A DNA stretch of 64,000 nucleotides from positions 81,205 through 145,204 of IMG/VR virus record IMGVR_UViG_3300045125_000034; one strand, given 5' to 3'. This document shows, one piece after another, positions 35,288-46,237 of the stretch. This stretch comes from a virus. The stretch's first letter is position 1, and each line of letters opens with the position of its first letter. The position numbers were made by a program, and so were the translations under genes. The notes beneath the pieces were generated by a model. The model was not told the DNA's origin, did no database searches, and worked only from the letters and a program-made list of their open reading frames with translations.

Positions 35288-37833
35288 TCAGAATTGGAAG
35301 AGTACTTCGATTTCTTCCTTTTGCTCAAGATTTCTTGTTATGGGTTGCGTATTCTGTATGTAGGTCAACTCTCCTGTCCTGTATTTCAGGTCTTCCTTGT
35401 GTGTTGTACTTACAACTCCACATTGAGAATCGTCGCCTTTATTGTCTACAAACGACAGTACTCCGGAAGGACTAAATTCTCCCTGAACACCACACATTCT
35501 CAAAACCCTCCAGCTTGACCCATCTGTTGCAATCCATTCTAAAACAGTACCCGACCCCTCTGCGGTCAACCCTAAGTAAGACTTGACCAAGGAATCCTGA
35601 GCAAAAGAGTTGATACCAAACGGATTTGAGATACTTGCTCGTAAAGTTACTGTTGTTGTTTGATCGTATAGTGTGGGGAGTCTTTGGATATCTCTCCGAT
35701 TTCGACTACGGTTGCTGTTCCCGTATTGTGTGTGGGTCTTCCTGCTACAGGTCCGGTAGATCCCAAACTTGCTGGCCTACTTGCTCTTAGGTAATAGTCC
35801 ACCTCTACCAACTTTTCAAACCTCGCAGGAAGACCTGAAGGTTCCTCCACATACAAAGTGGCAGAAGTATTTGTTCCTACTGTAGGTTCCCAACGGAAGA
35901 TAGAACCCGTAAATCTTGTATTGTGGACGCTGCTTTCTATGTTGCCAATGCTTGCAACAAACATTCCCGGATGAAAATCTTCCCCACCTGCGGAAAATAC
36001 TCCGAAGTACCACCCAATGCTGGCTCATATACCGTTGTGGGTATAACCTTTAGCCTTAAAAGTTCTCTCCCTCAGTACCCGCAACGATTCTCTGAGACAC
36101 ATCTACAACATCAAAGTAACCACTTGCATGCCCCAACAGAGGACGAAAATACTCTTCCTGTTGAAGCAAAATCCCCACCAGTAACATCAGAAACTATCAA
36201 TTCGGATAGACCATACTTGTCTGTACCCGAAAGACCTATTCCTGTTGGTCCTGATCTCCAATAAACAATTTTGCCTGTTGCCTGCGGGTAGGTAACTCCA
36301 GCTAGACCCCCGTTGTTCCTTGAGTCAAAGATCCTCCAAGTAGGAATGATCCAGTTAGTCCGTTTTGAGCCAAACGAAGTCTTACTTGTTTGTTTCTCAA
36401 TTGAGGGTTCTTTATGATCCCAAACTGTCTGTAGTCATTAGCAACAGATAGTTGATTCTTTTCGGATTGACTAAACTCAACGACTATCATTATTGCCGCA
36501 GAACCCAGTTCTCTAACAGCATTAGAGCCATGACCCCCGTGAGGAGAAAACACTATTTCTGCGGTATCATTCAATGAACCAATTCCCGTTAGCCCCGAAG
36601 TAAAAGTCAAACCCTTTATTACCTTAAACTCTGCTCGGGTATAATCTCTTCCCCCATCTATAACTTCATACGAGTCAACATATGCTTGGTTGAAGATGTT
36701 TGTGGTATCGCATCCTGTGGAACCCGAATTTAGAGATGGACCGAATTTTAGACCAATATCCGCTTCTCTAAAAAGTTCAAAGTACTATCTAGAGGATATC
36801 CATCCCCCTCTATTTGTACATTAGGAACTATGGAAAATTTACTGTCGTTTGATGAAAGCCCAACAGACAATGGATGATCCAAAGTTACTGTGCCGTAGTT
36901 GCCAACGGAAGAGTAGGAATAGGAATTGATTACTCTTCTTTGCCCTTCTCCCAGACCATCGTCAATAGAAAGAATTAGATCATCATAGAAACCATTGACT
37001 CCAATCAAATACGGACTGTATATTCGTATAGAACCCGTATGTCCTGCCGTATACCCTTGTTGGATTATGTTTTGGTTGTCAGGGCGTAGACAATTGATTA
37101 TGGTGAGATAGGGCTTGTATTGTTCTTTGATGCCAACGAAAGAAATCTGACCATTTATAGCACTCTGCTGAACATTCCATTGAAGAACTCTATCGTCTTC
37201 ACTCAATCTCAAGTACTGAACATAGGATACAGGCATGTAGCCCTGAATTATAACTCTTCGATATGGACCACTTCCTGAGATGTTTCATCATATATTGTTT
37301 TGGTTAGGAACTTTCTATTTTCCTCGGGTATCATATACATAAACTTCCAACGATACCCATCTGATAGTTTTCTGATCTCGGGATCAGTATGTGTTGGTGC
37401 TAGCGGTAGACTTAGAACCGTAGTTGTTGTCTATACACTTGTAGACTCTTGTTTCATCAACCAAGACATAAAATTGGGCGGGATAGTCGGCATCAAAAAG
37501 ATTGGAATAGTCTCTGTATGGTTCATACACCCCACCCAATTTCCAATCAAAACGAGGAACTACAAGAGAAATGTTGTCTTTAGAAATTCGTTTGGCTGCT
37601 ACAACGCTTTGCCAAAATTCTGTCTCTACTCTATCGCTATCCTGTGGTACTGGAACAGGACGGGCGTAGTTAGTCCCTGATAGCCCCGTATCTCTTGTTT
37701 CTGTAGGCCAAGGTGTTATTTTACCTATAGTTAAGAAATAGTTATCGGGAGACATCAGTTCGATGTCCGCTAACATCTTTTCAGCAAGATGTCTTCTATA
37801 GTTGTGGCGAATTGGTGAGCAAGATGATCCCAT
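35288..37833 (-). CDS. gp8: Baseplate wedge subunit gp8, enlarged
   Basis: AAKRISKDNISLVVPRFDW, FYVLVDETRVYKCIDNN, DGYRWKFMY, PHGGHGSNAVRELG, NDYRQFGIIKNP and GELTYIQN..ITRNLEQKEEI. Confidence 0.88.
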
Positions 37834-37852
37834 GATAGTATCTATTATAGAT

Positions 37853-40800
37853 TTATGATGTCCTGATGTAGTTGAAATTCATTATCTTGGTGCATTCTGG
37901 CACAATAGCATTTGCGGAGTTTCTGAACAGAAGTTTCAGCCTCATAAAGTGCCTATCTTTAGGTATATCTCTTCCCCTGAACCTAAATGTGGTTGAGTCA
38001 GAAACGAAGTAACTTGCTGACACCATTTCGTTTGTGGTGTTTCTGTTTTCTTGATTGGGGAAGGGTTTGTTTATTGATATTAGGTTGCTTGTTGGGGAGA
38101 ACGGTCCTGCATTTGCTAGCAAGTATTCCCTCTCGGGGGTGCGCCCGTCCGGCGCTGCGGGAGACACAATGTACAGTTCCGCCCATAGTGTTCTTTATGC
38201 CATAGTAGTTGAGATAAACTAAAGTAGAAACCCCCTCTGTTGGGGTTCCCGTTATGCCCCTAACCGCTTCCAAGTTGACTATGAGATTGGACCCACCTCC
38301 AACAAGGTTTTGTGGTTCTCTGTGGTCAAAATTGGTGTTCAATGGACCAGTTGAACCGTTGATGCTTTGAGCATACACCTGTGGGAATGGGGGAGGAGTA
38401 ACTTGATCTGTGGTGCAGTTGAATTCTTCTGCCCACGGGCATTTCAAAGAAAGCCCTAGCAGTTATCTTGCGGAAGTCCGAATAGGCTATGTTGTAACCA
38501 ATCGGATCTCCTTGAGGTATACTTTCTCCTGTAAGAGCAATAGTTTGAATACCTATATCGTCCCAAGAAGCAGTATAACCATATCCACTACCACTTAGTC
38601 CTTCATATAGTTCTAATAAGCCTTGGCTGACCCCCCATGTTAAGAGCATCATTGCCCAATCTGCCATATCTATTGTTCCGCTGTTATCAAAATCAGCAAG
38701 AACCGCAGAAGTTGATTCTGGTCTTTCCCCCGTTACACCAGCATTAGCGAACGCAACAGAACCATACTCTTGCGTAGAACATGTATCGTCATCGCAATAA
38801 GAAAGTACCCAAAAGTCCATTAAAGGTGGAGTATAAAGGATAGATTAGGTTTGAGACTATATCGACAGCAGTTTGTCTAAGAGTTGGGTTACTCGTAGTA
38901 GTAGGCAAACGATCTATTATAGTACTCCCAAATGGAAACCAATAAGTGGGCGAACCTGATGTTGGACCTGTTATTGAGTATGCCGAATTGGAGTATTCTT
39001 GCCCACTATTTCCGGTCAAAGAATTAGCCCAATGATAAAAGAACCCAAAGATTTTCTATACAAGATTTTGTATGAGTCTTGATTATCTTCTCTGCCGCTT
39101 GCAAAAATATTTGGAACTCGGTTGTGTTCTTTGAAAGGTGCTGACGCTTCCGAAGCACCCAACAAACAGTCATAAATGAATTCTGGATTGTAGTCATTGT
39201 AAAAGCCATCGACTGTTTTCTTATAGTTATACTGTGTTCCTAAAATCTGTCGGAACAAAAATTCTAAAAGATTCCTTGTTTATGACTGTGTATTCGGGAA
39301 TATAGGTTCTCATGTTGGAATCTGAGGATATGAAGAAACTTGGTGTATCTTTATCGTTTGTCGTATAAAGACGACTTGTACATAAAAACACCCTCTTTCT
39401 CTTCTTCCCCATAGAAACATAGTATTCGTTTAGTTTATCTACACCGTATAGAACAGAATCTACCATAGTCTTTACTTTGTTAGTAGATGGGCTGTGTAGG
39501 TGTGCGTCAACATATATCACATCTTGCTCTTGTACAAGACTAGATACCACATTTGCTGCACTTGCTCCGTAACTTCTGCGGTGTACTTCAGGATAGTTCT
39601 CAAATGACCTATAGAGATTTTCCCCGTCTAAAACAGAAATGAACTTGGGAACCCTCGGATAATTGTAGTAACCAAATCTACAGTTAGGATAGACCTCTTT
39701 GATTCTTCTTAGAACAAAAATCATGTCCCCTATTATTTCAGCAACACGATCTATATCCTCACTATTGGTGTATTCTACTTTGTACTTTGGGTATATCAAC
39801 TCTCTGTTGAATGTTTCATCTAAACATATCATCACATATTCTTTGGAGTCTCTGTTCAATCCAGAATCAGATAACCAAGAATTCATGGCATCTACTATGT
39901 CCGTAAGTAAGAGTGGAGATGCCCCTGTGTTCTTACTTTTCAGATCCGCTTCTGTGAACTTGTATAATCTCTTGCCGCCAAATATACTCGGTCCCGGAGA
40001 CGAGGATTCTTTAGACCAGAATAGTCTTGAACAAAGGTTTCTCCCAGGCACAGAGAATAAAAATCGGTCATAGAGAAATGTTGGGTTTGCTGCATCTGTC
40101 AAAGAGGGTATTCTGTAAGCAGTAAGACCTTCTACAGTTTGTAATGCTTCTTCTTCTTGCTCTGTGTAAAAGGGTACGAGCGGATTATAAGAAAGCATCA
40201 CATATCGTTCGCCTGAAGTGAATCCTGTTGCCCAAGCCTCTCGGTTTGCGGTTACAGATTCGGTCCATTCTTTCCAATATCCTGTTGTTCCGTTTGATCC
40301 TGTTGGAGTCGGTATACCAAAGACAGAAGCCGCCCCGTGATTACTCAAGAACTCTTTCTTTAGGTCATGCGGAATTCTTGCGACCACTCGGATCGGTCAT
40401 TTTCCTGTTGGGGTGCTGATAGATGATCCAAAACGGATCGGCGTTTTGGAATCCCTCTTGTTTTAGAGGAGTTTGAGTCTCGTTATACTCTACGCCCGAA
40501 GTAAAAGGATTACCTATGACCTTGAAGAAATCTTCATATGATGGTGGGGGAAACCTCTATCCATTACGGAATCTTTGTAGTGGTAGTAGTCAAGAATATC
40601 AACAACACCATCGGGACCACCTACAGGCAATCCTGCTATATCCAGCCCCGCCATATCATATCTAATTTTGTATTCGTGTTCTTGTCTGTTGTATCCTGCT
40701 ATAGAGACTTCTGTTTCTCCGTTTACCACCTGTGCTGTCGTAAACCATTTACTCAAGTCATTGTTGGTTAGGAATGTATATGGAAGATAGTTTCCAATTA

Positions 40801-41987
40801 TTGGAACATCATATTCGATCAACGATGTTTTTTGGTTGATGTCTGCGTATGAACATTTCTTTATCAACACTTTGCCATAAAAAGCCATACCCGCAGGATT
40901 CAAAAGTCTCTTTATGACATCCCTATACCTGTCTACGGTAATCTCAGTAAGCAAAACATAAGAGAAGTTTTGGTAATACTTGTTGTCTTGCATTACCTTG
41001 TTACTGCTCAATCTTCCATCGTTGTTTGCATAATACCCAGAGTATTCTGCTTGACCTTTTACAGTTATAGATCCCGAAAATCCTGTTCCTATTTCTGAAC
41101 TAATGCTTATTGTTGGTGGCGTTTTGTAGTTTACACCATAGTTGTCTATAACTATCTTCTTTACTTTACCTGTAGAATCTACTTCTGATACTCTACCTGA
41201 TCCTTTTATGCCAGGTGTCTCCTGCTGAAGGAGTGATTACAAGTTGATCTCCAACTCTGTAATTCTGCCCGCCGTTGTTTATTTGTGTGTCACCGAGAAC
41301 AGAAAAAACTCTGTTCTCTCTACGCAAGTTTCCGTCTTTGTCTTCAAATTCTACCCCCGCGTAGCCCGAAGAAAACTCTCCGTTTATGCCTCCCAAAGAT
41401 AGTTCGGCAACATCGTAAATCCCAATTCTGTAAGTTGAAACATCAAGTACTCTACCGCTTGCAACAATATCGCTGTTGGCGTTTCTTTGTATCAACCGCT
41501 GACCTACGGAATCGTATATCTGTCTACCCAAAACATTAGAGATCTTTACTGTTTTCCGAAGAACCCATTTGCCGTCTGATAGTTTTAGAATATCTTTCTT
41601 TGGGTAGTAGAATTCTACAGCCGTGTCGTAAAGAATTCTGAACAGGAAGTCATATGTCTTCTCGGTTCCCTTTGCCTTGTAGAAACTACGGATGTTCTTT
41701 ACCAACTTTGCCTTGTCAACGATTGTCTTTTTGTCAGTTATAGCCAAAGTCTCGGGGAAGTCAAACAAGAACTCGTTTTTGAACGAGTCTATAAACTCAT
41801 CCATAGTTCTATCAATATCGATCTACATCCTTTAGTTTCTTTGGTGACCGAAGATATTCGTTATCCTTATCCAACCACTCATAGTATGCAGTCAAGAATG
41901 ATATCATGGTAGGATGGTCAACCCGAACAAACTCGGGCAACTGACCTGCTATGATTGGGAAATAGGTTTTTCGTTCGGAGGGTTCAT
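37853..41987 (-). CDS. gp7: Baseplate wedge initiator gp7 with a long C-terminal extension (GH56-like barrel and dockerin-like motifs)
   Basis: QLPEFVRVDHPTMISFLTAYYEWL, LVKNIRSFYKAKGTEKTYDFLFRILY, YPKKDILKLSDGKW, MQDNKYYQNFSYVL..VIKRLLNPAGM; about 950 aa follow. Confidence 0.82.
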
Positions 41988-41990
41988 CTA

Positions 41991-43913
41991 TCAGTATGGG
42001 AATGGTGTTGCTGTTCTAGTGTCCTGACGGAATGTTGACTCTGGTTCCTACCCCAATTGTGCTTCTTGTCGTAGTCGATCAGGATGATCTGATTTCTTCT
42101 TGCTGCAATATCTTGAACCGCAGGAACCACCGTGATCTTGATTTCTGAGTCTGTGGCAGGCTTTATGTATTCAACCTTGAAGTTGTTGAGGACTATCTTT
42201 CCTGTATCATAGTTGACTTTTCCTGCCTTGCTGCTGATATAGACCTTTTCTGTGCCTACAACCTTGTAGATTCTCATGTTTCCTCTACCATCGTCATCCA
42301 AGTAGCAATCTACTGTGGGCTTGACTATGGAACTGCTTGTCGAATCTTTGTACCCAAACACCGAAGAGGATACAACAGGCTGATACCCGTCTATTGGGTG
42401 TAATAGTGGGTTGTCGAAAGATATTGTGTATGGTGCAGAATACGAGAGCAGGGGTTCGATTCTCTTGTTCAGACGAAGCGTGACTCTAGACCCTGTTATT
42501 GCTTGATTTGTATTGTCAATCGCGTTTAGGAATTTGGACATCTTGAAGTTCTTGTTGAACTTGGAAAGATTGTCATTTTCAAAGGCTTGTGTTGTGTTTC
42601 GGATGAACGAAATCAAACCATCGGGACTGAGATTTGTTCTATCCAAGTTGTAGGATGATACTGAATTGAATTCCAAGAAGAGGAAGTCGGGGTCCACTAT
42701 CTCGGGGGTGATACCAACCAAGTTCCTCTTACTCAATACAGACTTCTCTAGAGCCAACTTCTCAAGTGTACTGATACGCTTTCCGTTCTTTGGCTTGATT
42801 GAGATGAAGACTTTACCATATGACGGTGGGTCGTTCTGCTCGCCCCCCAAACCAAGAATGAATCAATACCGTCAGAGAACTCTCTGACAAGTATGGTCTT
42901 GTAGTCTTCTTCGGTTACTGCTCTCTCTTGTGCCTGATAGTTTCTTGGTGCGTAGTACTTGATGGAGTCTATACTTTCGGGAGTTGTTCCGCCGTAAGAA
43001 ACTCCTTGCTTGTTGTAGTCATTTAGAACGGGAGTGATGCTTGCAACATTACCCATGAGCAACGCATTTCCGCTTGAAGATCCGGCAAAGGTAAAGTTGG
43101 TGCAGCCGTTTGCCTCTTCTCCGTTAGTCTGAACATATTGAACTGATATGAGGTTTCCGTTTCTTGGACGCTTGCCCAAGATTCCGTCGCCAAAGTAGAT
43201 TTCAAATCTTCCGTCTTCAGTTTCTTGTAGGAAGTAGGCTAGGGATTCGCCGTTTAGCCCGTTGATGTCTGTAGCCTTGAACCACACATTAACAAGTCCT
43301 GTGGTGTTTGTGGTTGACTCTTGAACTCTTACCTGTAGGGTGTCAACATCAATCTTGTTGCTCGGTAGAATGAACTTCTGCGTTGGGTCAAAACTGTTGA
43401 CAACAAAGGTGTAACTTTTTAGTGTTCCTTCGTATAGTTTGATTCCCTTGACTACGGGGGTGTTATTCACAACCTGAACCTTATACGAGTCCAAAGAAAC
43501 AAAGTTGTAGGTGTTCTTGCCCAATCTTCCTGTAAAGACATCTCCGCGATTTATGAATGCCGATCCGTTTATGGTAGAAGACAAAACACTACTGTTACTG
43601 TTGAAGGTTATGTCCATCTCTATCTTGGAAGATTTTACTGACCTCGGAGTATAACCCAAGTGCTTTGCTATTGATACCGCACTCTGACGCAGAACAGCCG
43701 AATCCAAGAACGCTTCGTTTGCTACCATGTTTGCGTAGAAAGCTCTGATAGTGGGTGTTGTAAGCAAGAACATCCAAGAGGACATTCATGCCTGCTCCTT
43801 CGAAGTCGTAATCCTTGAACTGTTCTTGTGTTCTCAGGTAATCTTTGAGGTTTGTCTTGATGGCATCGAAGTCCAAACCATCTATGCGGAGATTTGCGTT
43901 ATTGGATAGCCAT
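41991..43913 (-). CDS. gp6: Baseplate wedge subunit gp6
   Basis: LDFDAIKTNLKDYLR..FKDYDFEGAGMNVLLDVLAYNTHY, NEAFLDSA, ESIDSIKYYAPRNYQAQERAVTEEDY and GGEQNDPPSYGKVFISIKP. Confidence 0.93.
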
Positions 43914-44302
43914 CTAGTCCTCTCCAAGAAAATGTTGGTCTCAAATATCTCTTGTTTGTTGATGATGGTGAACAGGATACTTATAGTTATGCTGTTTTCG
44001 TCGGGGCTTGGATTGAATGTAACCTCCAAGTTTTCGACTCTTGGTTCGTATCTTCTGATGATATCCGTGATATGACTTTGCATGACTGCGTAAGTGACGG
44101 GGTTGTAATTCTCAAACAGAAGATCCTGAATACCCGAAGATATCTCGGGGTGGAAAGGCTTCTCGTACCTCTTCAAAAGTATCAGGTTACGGATAGCCCT
44201 CTTGACTGCCTCTGCGTCTTCCTTCACAGCAACATCCTTGGTTACAGGATTAGCCTGAAAGTTTAGGTCCAAGTCGCGGAAATAGTTCTTGCTTGATGCC
44301 AT
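43914..44302 (-). CDS. gp25: Baseplate wedge subunit gp25
   Basis: YFRDLDLNF..AVKRAIRNLIL..EKPFHPEI..LLFE..YEPRV..FLERTR. Confidence 0.93.
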
Positions 44303-44940
44303 CAGTATTGCCTTATGATCTCAAGTTCTATGAACGAACGATATCTCTCCATCAAACGCATGGTGTCATCGGTATCGCTTGGCACATTGTTCTTGTCATT
44401 CCACTCAACCCGCACAAAGCCAACATACAACTCCTGCTTGCGTAGGGGCAGTATAATGAATGCATCTATGTTCTTGGACTCGTTATAGACCCGCAGAGAT
44501 GACTCCTCGGTTAGTGTTTTTGTCAAACGAATCTTTGAATCGTCTTCCTTGACCATCTCAATCATGTCCCAAAAGATCGTGGTCAGAACATTCTGAAGGT
44601 AGGGGTATTCCATAGACACACCCGGACTGCACGATTCGTGAGACACACTAAATCTCTTCATGGGCGAACCCTCTAGGAACCGCCCTCCATTATGGAACTG
44701 ACCTATCTGAACTCGGTCGGCATCCATGTTGATACGGAGTGATGTCAGCATTTCGTGAATGTGACTGTGCTTAAGGTCGGGCTTTGCCGATATGCACAAC
44801 TCCTTGGGGTCTTCCTTCTTCTGCATCATCTCCCGTACTTACGCTTGAGGTAGCCGAAGGTAACCATGATGCCGCCAAAAACACCCGCTATCGCCACTCC
44901 CATGTTTGTCCAAAACTCAATGCTGCTTGTGCTGAACATA
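44302..44940 (-). CDS. Membrane protein: N-terminal TM helix plus GAF-like domain (T4 holin T-like architecture)
   Basis: MGVAIAGVFGGIMVTFGYL TM helix joined by a frameshift to ..LRINMDADRVQIGQFHNGG..AFIILPL..YVGFVRVEW. Confidence 0.5.
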
Positions 44941-44949
44941 TGAACTCCT

Positions 44950-45249
44950 TTAGCCCCCACAGCCTACATTTTTGCTACCCCAACCCACCGCCGAACCACA
45001 ACTGATAGGATCTCCCAAACGCATCAACTGTCTGCTGTTTACAAACACCATAGACGATCCCTTTACGGATATGGCCAAATGGCAGTTGCCGCTACAGCAA
45101 CACCACCAACAATGCGGTCCCCATCCGTCAAGTTGACGATGTGCTCCTCGACTGTTAACAAACACATTCGAAGACCCCGCTATGTTCTGCCTTGGAGGGT
45201 AACAATCGTGTCCTGTACAGATGTCCCCAAATCGTGCCACTCCTGCCAT
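44950..45249 (-). CDS. gp5.4: PAAR spike-tip protein gp5.4
   Basis: VARFGDICTGHDCYPPR..GSSNVFVN..GSSMVFVN..RLGDPISCGS. Confidence 0.92.
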   Translation of the reverse strand: MAGVARFGDICTGHDCYPPRQNIAGSSNVFVNSRGAHRQLDGWGPHCWWCCCSGNCHLAISVKGSSMVFVNSRQLMRLGDPISCGSAVGWGSKNVGCGG

Positions 45250-46237
45250 TATGGAAAGTATCCTCTCTGTTTCATCCCCTTGAGGTATTCCGCATTTCCT
45301 ACGGGCTTACCATCTAGGTAGAATCTATTCTTGATATTTATGATGAGCCTATCTCTATCTGAAGACCAGTTGTTGCTGACTCTCAGACTAAAAGTCTTGT
45401 CGGAAAACACTCGGATCTCTTGCGTTGAAGGCTCTGATTGTAAACGCGGCGGTGTAGTAGGCACTCCTACCATTCAAGTAAGTAGCAGCCGAGCCGATTG
45501 TCCCGTAGTTCTCTTCGTCAATTTGAAAATCCGTAGGCAAACGGAACGCCTCTAAGAAATAGTCCTTGTCTGTGGGGTCTCCCGGATTGTCGGGAAGATC
45601 CATTTCAGAGATCAGACCATACGCAACACCTGTATCCATGTTCAGGGTTAGGTCAGAGGAAACTCTCCACCAACCACCATGTACTTGATATCGCAGCATT
45701 CGTTGCATTGGTAACGATACACGGACCCATCGTATCCATAAGGGGAGTACGCATTAGACACCCCACCTAGCGTATTTGTGTAAGGTCCGGGTGCGGGATG
45801 GGCGGGGAAGTACAGAGTCCTATTGTTACCATCAAAGTACTGCAACTCTCTAACCGAAAACTGATTGACCATGCTGTTAGTCATAGTCTTGAGTTTCCCC
45901 AACTCTCCAAACTCAATCAAGCAAGCGTCGTTTACTGCTGCTCCGGTTGCTCCCGAAACCAAAGGACCAGATGCTTGGCTCTGATGGTAGTAGTAGGCGG
46001 TAACCCCTATAGCACGGCAACCGTCGCCGGGGTTATTGCCGTTCCGTTTACAACATAAGGTCCATCGGGGTAGTAGAATTCGGGCGGGCGCATACCCTTG
46101 TGGGTGTACCTGCCTAGCCAACCCTTCCACTCTATTGGCTCAGTATTAGAGTATTTGTCAGATCCATCGCCCAAGGTACATTGGGCTTCAACCACATATG
46201 CGTATCTGTTGTATGGGGAGTAAACGGTCCTTCTCAT
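45249..46237 (-). CDS. Hypothetical virion protein with an Ig-like (He_PIG-type) segment
   Basis: Joined ORFs; YMVVGGEFP..LTLNMDTGVAYGLI..FTIRAF..KTFSLRV. Confidence 0.5.

Follow-up and report, generated by a model that had tools for sequence, protein, structure and literature searches.

A GH56-like barrel predicted inside an insertion of a gp7-like baseplate wedge gene of a T4-like environmental phage

The baseplate wedge locus

The window analysed here is a stretch of 64,000 nucleotides forming the 3′ part of a 145-kb virus record of IMG/VR (IMGVR_UViG_3300045125_000034), whose completeness is estimated by CheckV at 67%. Between about 44.3 and 37.4 kb its minus strand contains a baseplate wedge module of T4 type. 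The T4-type gene order gp25-gp6-gp7-gp8 is seen in the window, in clean relatives (L002-L005) and in two further contigs. The gp7-like gene of the window carries an insertion of about 550 amino acids (aa), the core of which is predicted to form a beta/alpha barrel related in fold to the hyaluronidases of glycoside hydrolase family 56 (GH56). The features of the locus are collected in Table 1.

The wedge assignment of the gp7-like gene comes from the Pfam family PF23786 (Baseplate_wedge), which matches the window at 41193-41822 on the minus strand (E 1.3e-7, 31.9 bits for a cut-off of 27), and from phrog_17744, annotated as 'baseplate wedge subunit', which matches two of the gp7-like pieces (E 8e-25 and 4.6e-18). 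The homologues P0002, P0003, P0004 and P0006 likewise match PF23786. The gene starts with the ATG at 41987-41985, three bases past the gp6 stop, as in the clean relatives, and ends with the stop codon at 37855-37853.

Every gene of the window is split into short reading frames by frame switches, and the gp7-like gene, in which nine switches were counted from stop-to-stop frames over 4.1 kb, is fragmented at a rate similar to that of the other genes. These breaks are sequencing or assembly indels, in a pattern typical of an uncorrected long-read assembly. At the N-terminal break (41950-41960, minus strand) one C is missing from a C run in comparison with a homologue reading KPISPIIAGQ. A pseudogene is ruled out by the similar fragmentation of all window genes and by this break, the one inspected at base level, being a homopolymer indel. 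Since all the genes are split, gene boundaries in the record cannot be trusted without a clean relative.

Table 1. Features of the gp7-like gene and its neighbours in the window
Feature	Position	Strand	Basis or remark
gp25-like and gp6-like wedge genes, frame-shifted	41988..44320	-	PF04965; PF21379/PF21871/PF21387; PHROG 219, 261
gp7-like baseplate wedge gene, nine frame switches	37853..41987	-	PF23786, phrog_17744, tblastn with P0008
gp8-like gene, its start	37384..37852	-	PHROG 438 (E 1.5e-19); weak PF09215
N-terminal wedge core and linker common with short forms, ending GERYVMLSYNP (40181-40213)	40181..41987	-	alignment A1; includes QDNKYYQNFSY..NPAGM and the gp18-domain-I-like module
Insertion of about 550 aa, long forms only	38500..40180	-	alignment A1 and BLASTP junctions
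Predicted GH56-like (beta/alpha) barrel core, GGKRLYKF to VDGFYNDYNPEF	39178..39979	-	AlphaFold model of the homologous P0010 insert
EF-hand/dockerin-like loop DFDNSGTIDMADW, close to the insertion's end	38656..38694	-	weak, non-significant profile matches
C-terminal domain of long and short forms, GYNIAYSDFRKITARAFF ... FNYIRTS	37856..38499	-	alignment A1, junctions
YVMICLDETF: strand YVMICL, then D-E, at the place of the GH56 Asp-x-Glu by strand order	39809-39838	-	motif search, alignment
MIFVLRRIKEVYPNCRFGYYNYPRVP: helix and strand with FGYYNYP	39647-39724	-	family pattern [FI]GY[YN]x[YW]P
VSSLVQEQDVIYVDAHL: helix end and strand EQDVIYVDAHL	39497-39547	-	invariant E-Q; invariant Asp at the C-terminal end of the strand
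Strand KRVFLCTSRLY	39365-39397	-	invariant R-K before; invariant S-R..T-N after
VDGFY, in the next frame past an indel	39199-39213	-	motif search
QDNKYYQNFSY, upstream	40958-40990	-	motif search
NPAGM, upstream	40886-40900	-	motif search
Frame switch (indel) inside the barrel, from the P0001 frame to the frame holding VDGFYNDYNPEF	39227..39279	-	overlapping stop-to-stop frames 39227-40396 and 39016-39279

A single gene with an internal insertion

A first-pass annotation of this DNA, made from its letters, had placed a hyaluronidase-like barrel within gp7 and had quoted five motifs of it. All five were recovered by script on the minus strand, in the order given, between 39199 and 39838. The first four stand in a single open frame of 386 aa (39227-40387, minus strand; P0001), and both frames around the switch that follows align colinearly to intact homologues. 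The placement within gp7 is borne out by the clean homologues, in which the whole is one uninterrupted open reading frame (ORF) of 1313-1375 aa running from gp6 to gp8. Such ORFs, with no stop or restart, occur in five independent clean contigs, all of them short-read assemblies, flanked by a gp6-like gene of 634-639 aa and a gp8-like gene, which measures 747-944 aa where complete and is partial on one contig. A word-indexed search of longer proteins gave four intact proteins of 1347-1375 aa covering 96-97% of P0001 at 48-64% identity; the highest value belongs to the 1357-aa P0008 (64% over 97% of the length), the three others lying at 48-50%. When P0008 was compared with the window by tblastn, its residues 11-1357 were covered from 41958 to 37856 in frame-switching pieces. 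Because the clean homologues carry an intact single ORF, the block belongs to gp7; the reading as a separate gene, named beforehand as contrary to the proposal, is ruled out by these homologues. Judged from the homologous genes, then, the block and its flanks make up one gp7-like wedge gene, carried by an environmental phage of the T4-like kind.

The annotation had also described about 950 aa continuing past the normal gp7 end. Coding does continue there, but in three pieces and not as a simple C-terminal extension: NPAGM is followed by about 230 aa common with short forms of the protein, by the insertion, and by a C-terminal domain of about 210 aa common to both forms. The alignment of five long forms with five short forms of about 800 aa (P0006 and P0012-P0015; alignment A1) shows two colinear stretches, one running up to '...GFTSGERYVMLSYNP' (window 40181-40213) and the other reaching from 'GYxIxYSDFRKITARAFF' (38446-38499) to the C-terminus. 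The gap of the short forms, between '...GERYV(M)LxYNP' and 'GxxxxYS(D/E)FRK(I/M)T', falls at the position of the block in the long forms, as the BLASTP junctions also bear out. The block is a true internal insertion because both of its flanks are colinear in long and short forms, and it is dispensable for baseplate assembly because the short forms keep the same neighbours.

The same region accepts other cargoes. At the same junction P0004 contains an unrelated insert of 2375 aa of unrecognised sequence. In P0003 (L005:3001-9993), which has the GH56-like block, a second site about 50 residues upstream holds six TIG domains and an RCC1 propeller. By such insertions the gp7-like relatives span from 782 to 3166 aa. 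To state, as had been done, that no gp7 with such a cargo was known is therefore an overstatement, these relatives carrying RCC1 and TIG domains or the 2375-aa insert at or near the site. On the alignments, this loop region is a hot spot at which modular cargo is inserted, as would suit a display region exposed on the surface. RCC1 and TIG/Ig-like domains are typical adhesion modules, and their presence in the loop region of relatives supports a role in host contact.

Near its end the insertion has a loop of the form DxDGSGxxDxGD whose EF-hand/dockerin-like matches are weak (calmodulin E 0.085-1, group 2 dockerin E 0.26, the dockerin-bearing 2jnk E 0.72) and come without a Pfam match. A second Asp/Gly-rich loop of this kind, PDGVVDILDYY (40583-40615, minus strand), is present in short and long forms alike. 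The post-barrel part of the insertion (38789-39177, minus strand) shows the conserved stretches RSxNTDSY and SATGPT..SYWFP; no fold was recognised in it, and residues 330-480 of the model of the P0010 insert have a predicted local distance difference test score (pLDDT) below 50.

The lineage bearing the insertion is small. Seven distinct sequences were found: the window, P0008-P0011, P0002 and P0003. Run exhaustively over 1.84 billion representative proteins, phmmer returned seven hits, including the window's own frame and the 271-aa fragment P0007, and the remaining hits are all long gp7-like proteins. Scans of IMG/VR gave a single further locus, 99.9% identical to P0009. The phages of INPHARED gave no match in nucleotide or protein searches, relatives of the gp7-like family were not found in GTDB genome contigs, and among proteins of 142-606 aa no stand-alone relative of the insert domain was found at E≤10.

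The predicted fold and its GH56 match

The proposal that the insert has a GH56 fold is supported, with the qualification that membership in GH56 by sequence model fails: a beta/alpha core was predicted with GH56 structures as its best matches in the PDB. The single-sequence AlphaFold prediction of P0001 was poor (pLDDT 40) and of no use by itself. A model of the insert of P0010 (544 aa) was built on a nine-row alignment. The mean pLDDT of this model is 45.6, and residues 78-268 are confident, with ten-residue blocks mostly at 77-92. They comprise five strand-helix units (RLYKV, YIMLD, RIGYY, VMYLD and KIIIC). A fold other than a TIM barrel had been named as the outcome contradicting the proposal; what the alignment-based model has is a confident beta/alpha core.

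Foldseek against the PDB placed GH56 enzymes at ranks 1-4, namely 1fcq of bee venom (E 6.3e-5), 1fcu, the human HYAL1 2pe4, and 2j88. GH18 chitinase B enters at rank 5 and is mixed in with the GH56 enzymes that follow, PH-20 at rank 6 and Ves v 2 at rank 8. GH84 O-GlcNAcase ranked lower. With VIA-align the insect GH56 enzymes scored Z 12.4-12.6, HYAL1 10.2 and PH-20 10.0, and other barrels 8.3 at most; the alignment to 1fcq superposes 215 residues at a root-mean-square deviation of 4.3 Å, model residues 63-320 lying on residues 26-295 of a chain of 314. An exhaustive VIA search over 48,161 representative chains, carried out independently of Foldseek, was led by 2atm (12.4) and 9jub (10.0), the rest reaching 8.3 or less. 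Even with the poor model of the window's own frame Foldseek puts 1fcq first, in this case without significance (E 0.016). The language-model feature searches of the ESM Atlas, which count as leads only, gave bacterial 'hyaluronidase' (PF01630) clusters among the top named ones for both the window protein and the P0010 core, two members that are 49% identical. The viral structure library BFVD gave no match at E≤1e-3. The resemblance of the motifs to GH56 is not significant by sequence; it is only in the predicted fold that it exceeds chance. We conclude that the modelled insert core is a beta/alpha barrel with GH56 as the closest known fold; the closest structural match being GH56, the core is probably homologous to that family as a very remote relative.

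We consider it improbable that the insert has instead a generic TIM-like fold unrelated to GH56, of the GHL10/Cwp19-like or DUF4434-like kind for instance, or that the ranking is an artefact of a model from a shallow alignment. Such a possibility would agree with the absence of a GH56 signal in every sequence method, with the low mean pLDDT, with the GHL10, DUF4434, DUF4015 and GH18-like clusters that the ESM Atlas gives at similar scores, with the third rank of Cwp19 for the window's own poor model, and with VIA Z values of 7-8 being common among barrels. It is opposed by the distance of 2-4 Z units that separates GH56 from all other barrels both in a second look and in the exhaustive search, by a match that spans residues 26-295 of the 314-residue 1fcq chain, and by hyaluronidase-named clusters being the top named leads for two different members. 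The order of the strand-end motifs (the acid, GYY-x-YP, then the later strands) is also that of GH56.

The catalytic position and the conserved residues

GH56 enzymes fold as (beta/alpha)7 barrels. Their catalytic group is Glu/Asp, and their retaining mechanism is assisted by the substrate, with a conserved Glu donating the proton (PMC12254123). The corresponding position was compared in the seven insert-bearing sequences, the equivalence to GH56 being drawn from strand order and not from residue superposition. At the end of the YVMIxL strand the window reads C-L-D-E, P0008 S-L-E-N, P0009 D-L-N-N, P0010 D-L-D-A, P0011 D-L-D-D, and both P0002 and P0003 K-L-N-Q. The canonical D-x-E of GH56 catalysis is thus not conserved, and Asn occupies the place of the acid in three of the seven (P0009, P0002 and P0003). 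The caution of the first-pass annotation that the DWE motif is non-canonical was well placed, since the position varies among D, E and N across the family and the Glu is not kept. A loop of 22-25 aa after this strand is absent from P0002 and P0003.

Other positions are far more constant. Every one of the seven has the motif [FI]-G-Y-[YN]-x-[YW]-P, in which G, Y and P do not vary and which resembles WGYYxFP of GH56. In that family the consensus W-G-Y-Y-x-[FY]-P lies on the strand following the catalytic one, and its tyrosine positions the substrate. Also invariant throughout, at or just after predicted strands, are G-Y, the Asp of V-x-Y-[LV]-D, and S-R and T-N past the fifth strand, to which are added Y-N of [DN]G[FY]YN and E-x-x-Y-x-S-x-E in a hairpin. 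The placement of these residues at strand ends was read from sequence and predicted secondary structure rather than from coordinates. TIM barrels form their ligand sites just after the strands. The lack of conservation of the DxE pair, together with invariant Tyr, Asp, Arg, Ser and Asn past the strands, favours glycan binding over canonical hydrolysis.

An alternative that we regard as rather unlikely is an active virion-borne glycosidase, a depolymerase with a variant catalytic centre that would cut a capsule, an exopolysaccharide or a peptidoglycan-like polymer as the baseplate lands. The acid directly past the YVMIxL strand would, for instance, be one candidate residue, paired either with the Asp of VIYVD, which is invariant, or with invariant Glu residues. 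The closest folds, GH56 followed by GH18 and GH84, are all retaining glycosidases acting on N-acetylhexosamine polymers. An acid, D or E, directly follows the strand in the window, P0008, P0010 and P0011, and the last two read D-L-D there, which is DxD/DxE-like. Further invariant acidic residues are found elsewhere in the barrel. Baseplate hydrolases are moreover known, such as the gp5 lysozyme of T4 (PMC3004832) and the hub of A-1(L) with its dual hydrolytic activity (PMC10966104). Against such an enzyme stand the Asn that three of the seven have at the acid position and the full D-x-E that none of them has, in view of the Glu required as proton donor within the Glu/Asp group of GH56 (PMC12254123). 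The variably present loop after the strand would likewise be unusual beside a fixed catalytic centre, and the equivalence with GH56 is by strand order only. Still more doubtful is the bolder proposition that the insert founds a phage branch of the GH56 superfamily, as an active depolymerase with a non-canonical acid pair in six copies on the gp7 wedge and not on a spike or fibre. If this were true, the baseplate rim itself would clear or grip N-acetylhexosamine-containing host glycan.

It is very improbable that the insert is a purely architectural module, docking fibres or baseplate proteins, possibly by way of the EF-hand/dockerin-like loops, with neither a glycan nor an enzymatic role. The myophage A-1(L) is a documented case of wedge insertion domains holding tail fibres (PMC10966104), domains of T4 gp7 bind gp9 and gp10 (PMC3004832), EF-hand/dockerin-like loops adjoin the insert, and the catalytic motif is degenerate. 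On the other hand, the short forms of about 800 aa show that the block is dispensable for assembly, relatives carry RCC1 propellers and TIG/Ig-like adhesion modules in the region of the site, and the conserved polar residues lie just past predicted strands, where TIM barrels bind their ligands.

Proposed role of the insertion

The explanation that we prefer, held with about even confidence, is a remote GH56-like barrel inserted in the gp7-like wedge gene, most likely a glycan-binding or otherwise non-canonical module, in six copies per baseplate. The analysis shows the one gene, its internal insertion, the beta/alpha core, GH56 structures as the best match and a DxE that is not conserved; we infer the GH56 homology, the glycan binding, the exposure in six copies and a part in adsorption. 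In a small lineage the gp7-like protein has acquired the insertion in a loop of its C-terminal half. Rather than carrying out canonical GH56 hydrolysis, the core of the insert would bind a polysaccharide of the host surface that probably contains N-acetylhexosamine. In T4, gp7 is a monomer present in 6 copies per tail, one per wedge, and is located in the peripheral 'pins' of the baseplate (PMC3004832). If the gp7-like protein is arranged as in T4, six GH56-like barrels would stand on the baseplate rim, one per copy. There they would bind, and perhaps trim, a capsule, slime or cell-wall glycan, fixing the baseplate before or during the baseplate switch.

Several points weigh against this explanation. 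The structural comparisons all come from one partly confident model, in which only about 190 of the 544 residues are modelled confidently and the last strands of the barrel have low confidence; Foldseek and VIA are not independent of that model because both used it, and the equivalence of GH56 residues is by strand order. The TM-scores are low, 0.25 by query and 0.41 by target. The 386-aa P0001 gave no match in Pfam at E≤1 or in PHROGs, and five members (alignment A2) searched against Pfam at E≤10 gave only an irrelevant match of 0.14. The PF01630 hidden Markov model matched nothing in the phage genome at E≤10, and searches of PDB sequences with a single protein, a five-row profile, a 96-aa fragment and a 29-aa GYY fragment returned chance matches and no GH56 enzyme. 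The copy number and location of gp7 are carried over solely by synteny and family annotation, and the T4 gp7 chain was not listed at E≤1 when the ten-member family profile was compared with PDB sequences. Finally, D or E stands directly past the strand in four of the seven members, and the second strand after it terminates in an invariant Asp, so that catalysis by a variant site is possible as far as the residues indicate.

Among cellular genomes, PF01630 was found neither in five Bacteroidota genomes obtained with a 16S probe nor in a phylum-wide sample of 401 genomes, one genome being in both. Bacterial GH56-like proteins thus seem rare and divergent, at least from the 401 Bacteroidota genomes. 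The bacterial 'hyaluronidase' clusters of the ESM Atlas, which belong to Bacteroidota, Planctomycetota and Pseudomonadota, have partial PF01630 coverage.

Other features of the module

The N-terminal half of the gp7-like protein includes a small module related to domain I of the tail-sheath protein gp18, at about 41000-41240 on the minus strand (positions 230-310 of the A1 profile). It was recognised by PF22639 and by sheath chains of the PDB (E 1e-6 to 3e-5), and gp18 domain I was the sole match of the ten-member gp7-like profile among PDB sequences. In relatives the gp8-like gene is much enlarged, to 830-944 aa, with only faint PF09215 matches, and a DUF4815 protein of about 1690 aa is found downstream of it (L002:12089-19720, L004:6956-9942). 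The whole baseplate periphery looks expanded in these relatives.

Upstream of gp25 in the window a Cys/Gly-rich frame (44950-45306, minus strand) looks PAAR-like from its sequence, and in L004 and L005 PF05488 genes hold the syntenic position. A frame of 178 aa (44302-44838, minus strand) adjoins it and matches only PHROGs of unknown function, 30125 and 14038. As clues to the host, nrdJ and PhoH were sought in the phage genome, with nothing usable found.

Relation to known systems and significance

The predicted core is matched best by GH56 enzymes (bee Hya, 1FCQ/1FCU/2J88; Ves v 2, 2ATM; HYAL1, 2PE4; PH-20, 9JUB), at Z 10-12.6 over 209-249 residues. The insert resembles them in the order of its strand-end motifs, in a G-Y-Y-x-Y-P like WGYYxFP and in a size of about 300 aa. 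It differs in having no detectable sequence similarity (PF01630 being negative, and identity in the structural alignments about 12%), no conserved Asp-x-Glu pair and none of the EGF-like or C-terminal domains of the animal enzymes, and in being embedded in a phage structural protein where those are secreted animal enzymes. The chi-lectins of GH18, such as YKL-40, keep a TIM-barrel glycosidase fold and a conserved binding groove after loss of the catalytic acid. They may serve as a model for the insert as a lectin, although they belong to a different family and are secreted by animals or plants, not built into a virion.

With gp7 of T4 and the gp7-like families (PF23786; PHROGs 17744, 2885 and 701) the protein has in common its gene position and presumably its one copy per wedge (PMC3004832). 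It is not detectably related to T4 gp7 by sequence, and its lineage adds the gp18-domain-I-like module and the EF-hand-like loops, seven members having the GH56-like insert too. Other baseplates also bear extra domains: the gp5 lysozyme of T4 and the hub hydrolases of A-1(L) do so on the hub or spike but not on gp7 (PMC3004832, PMC10966104), and the wedge insertion of A-1(L) gp31 is a fibre-holding domain of about 100 aa without a glycosidase fold (PMC10966104). The phage hyaluronidases HylP1/2/3 are PL16 lyases with a triple-stranded beta-helix on tail fibres or spikes, and these and other tailspike depolymerases are, as the insert would be, virion-borne modules aimed at host surface polysaccharide (PMC11669647). 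The insert differs from them as a predicted beta/alpha barrel, a hydrolase-type fold, placed in a wedge subunit.

GH56 is described in reviews as the family of mammalian and venom hyaluronidases (PMC11669647, PMC12254123), and these two reviews, reached by a full-text search for GH56 and phage, describe no such wedge domain. The insert is best described as a GH56-like barrel, a variant both of modular wedge proteins and of virion-borne glycan modules. The practical value is modest pending a host and a ligand. There is also a warning for annotation, since sequence models miss the adhesion or enzyme modules concealed in 'gp7' genes of 800-3200 aa.

With a GH56-like barrel in a core wedge subunit, the known range of this fold would come to include the virions of phages. 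The gp7 loop would be a modular display site, holding among relatives nothing, the GH56-like block or the 2375-aa insert, and host-range determinants of T4-like phages would then sit on gp7 besides the fibres.

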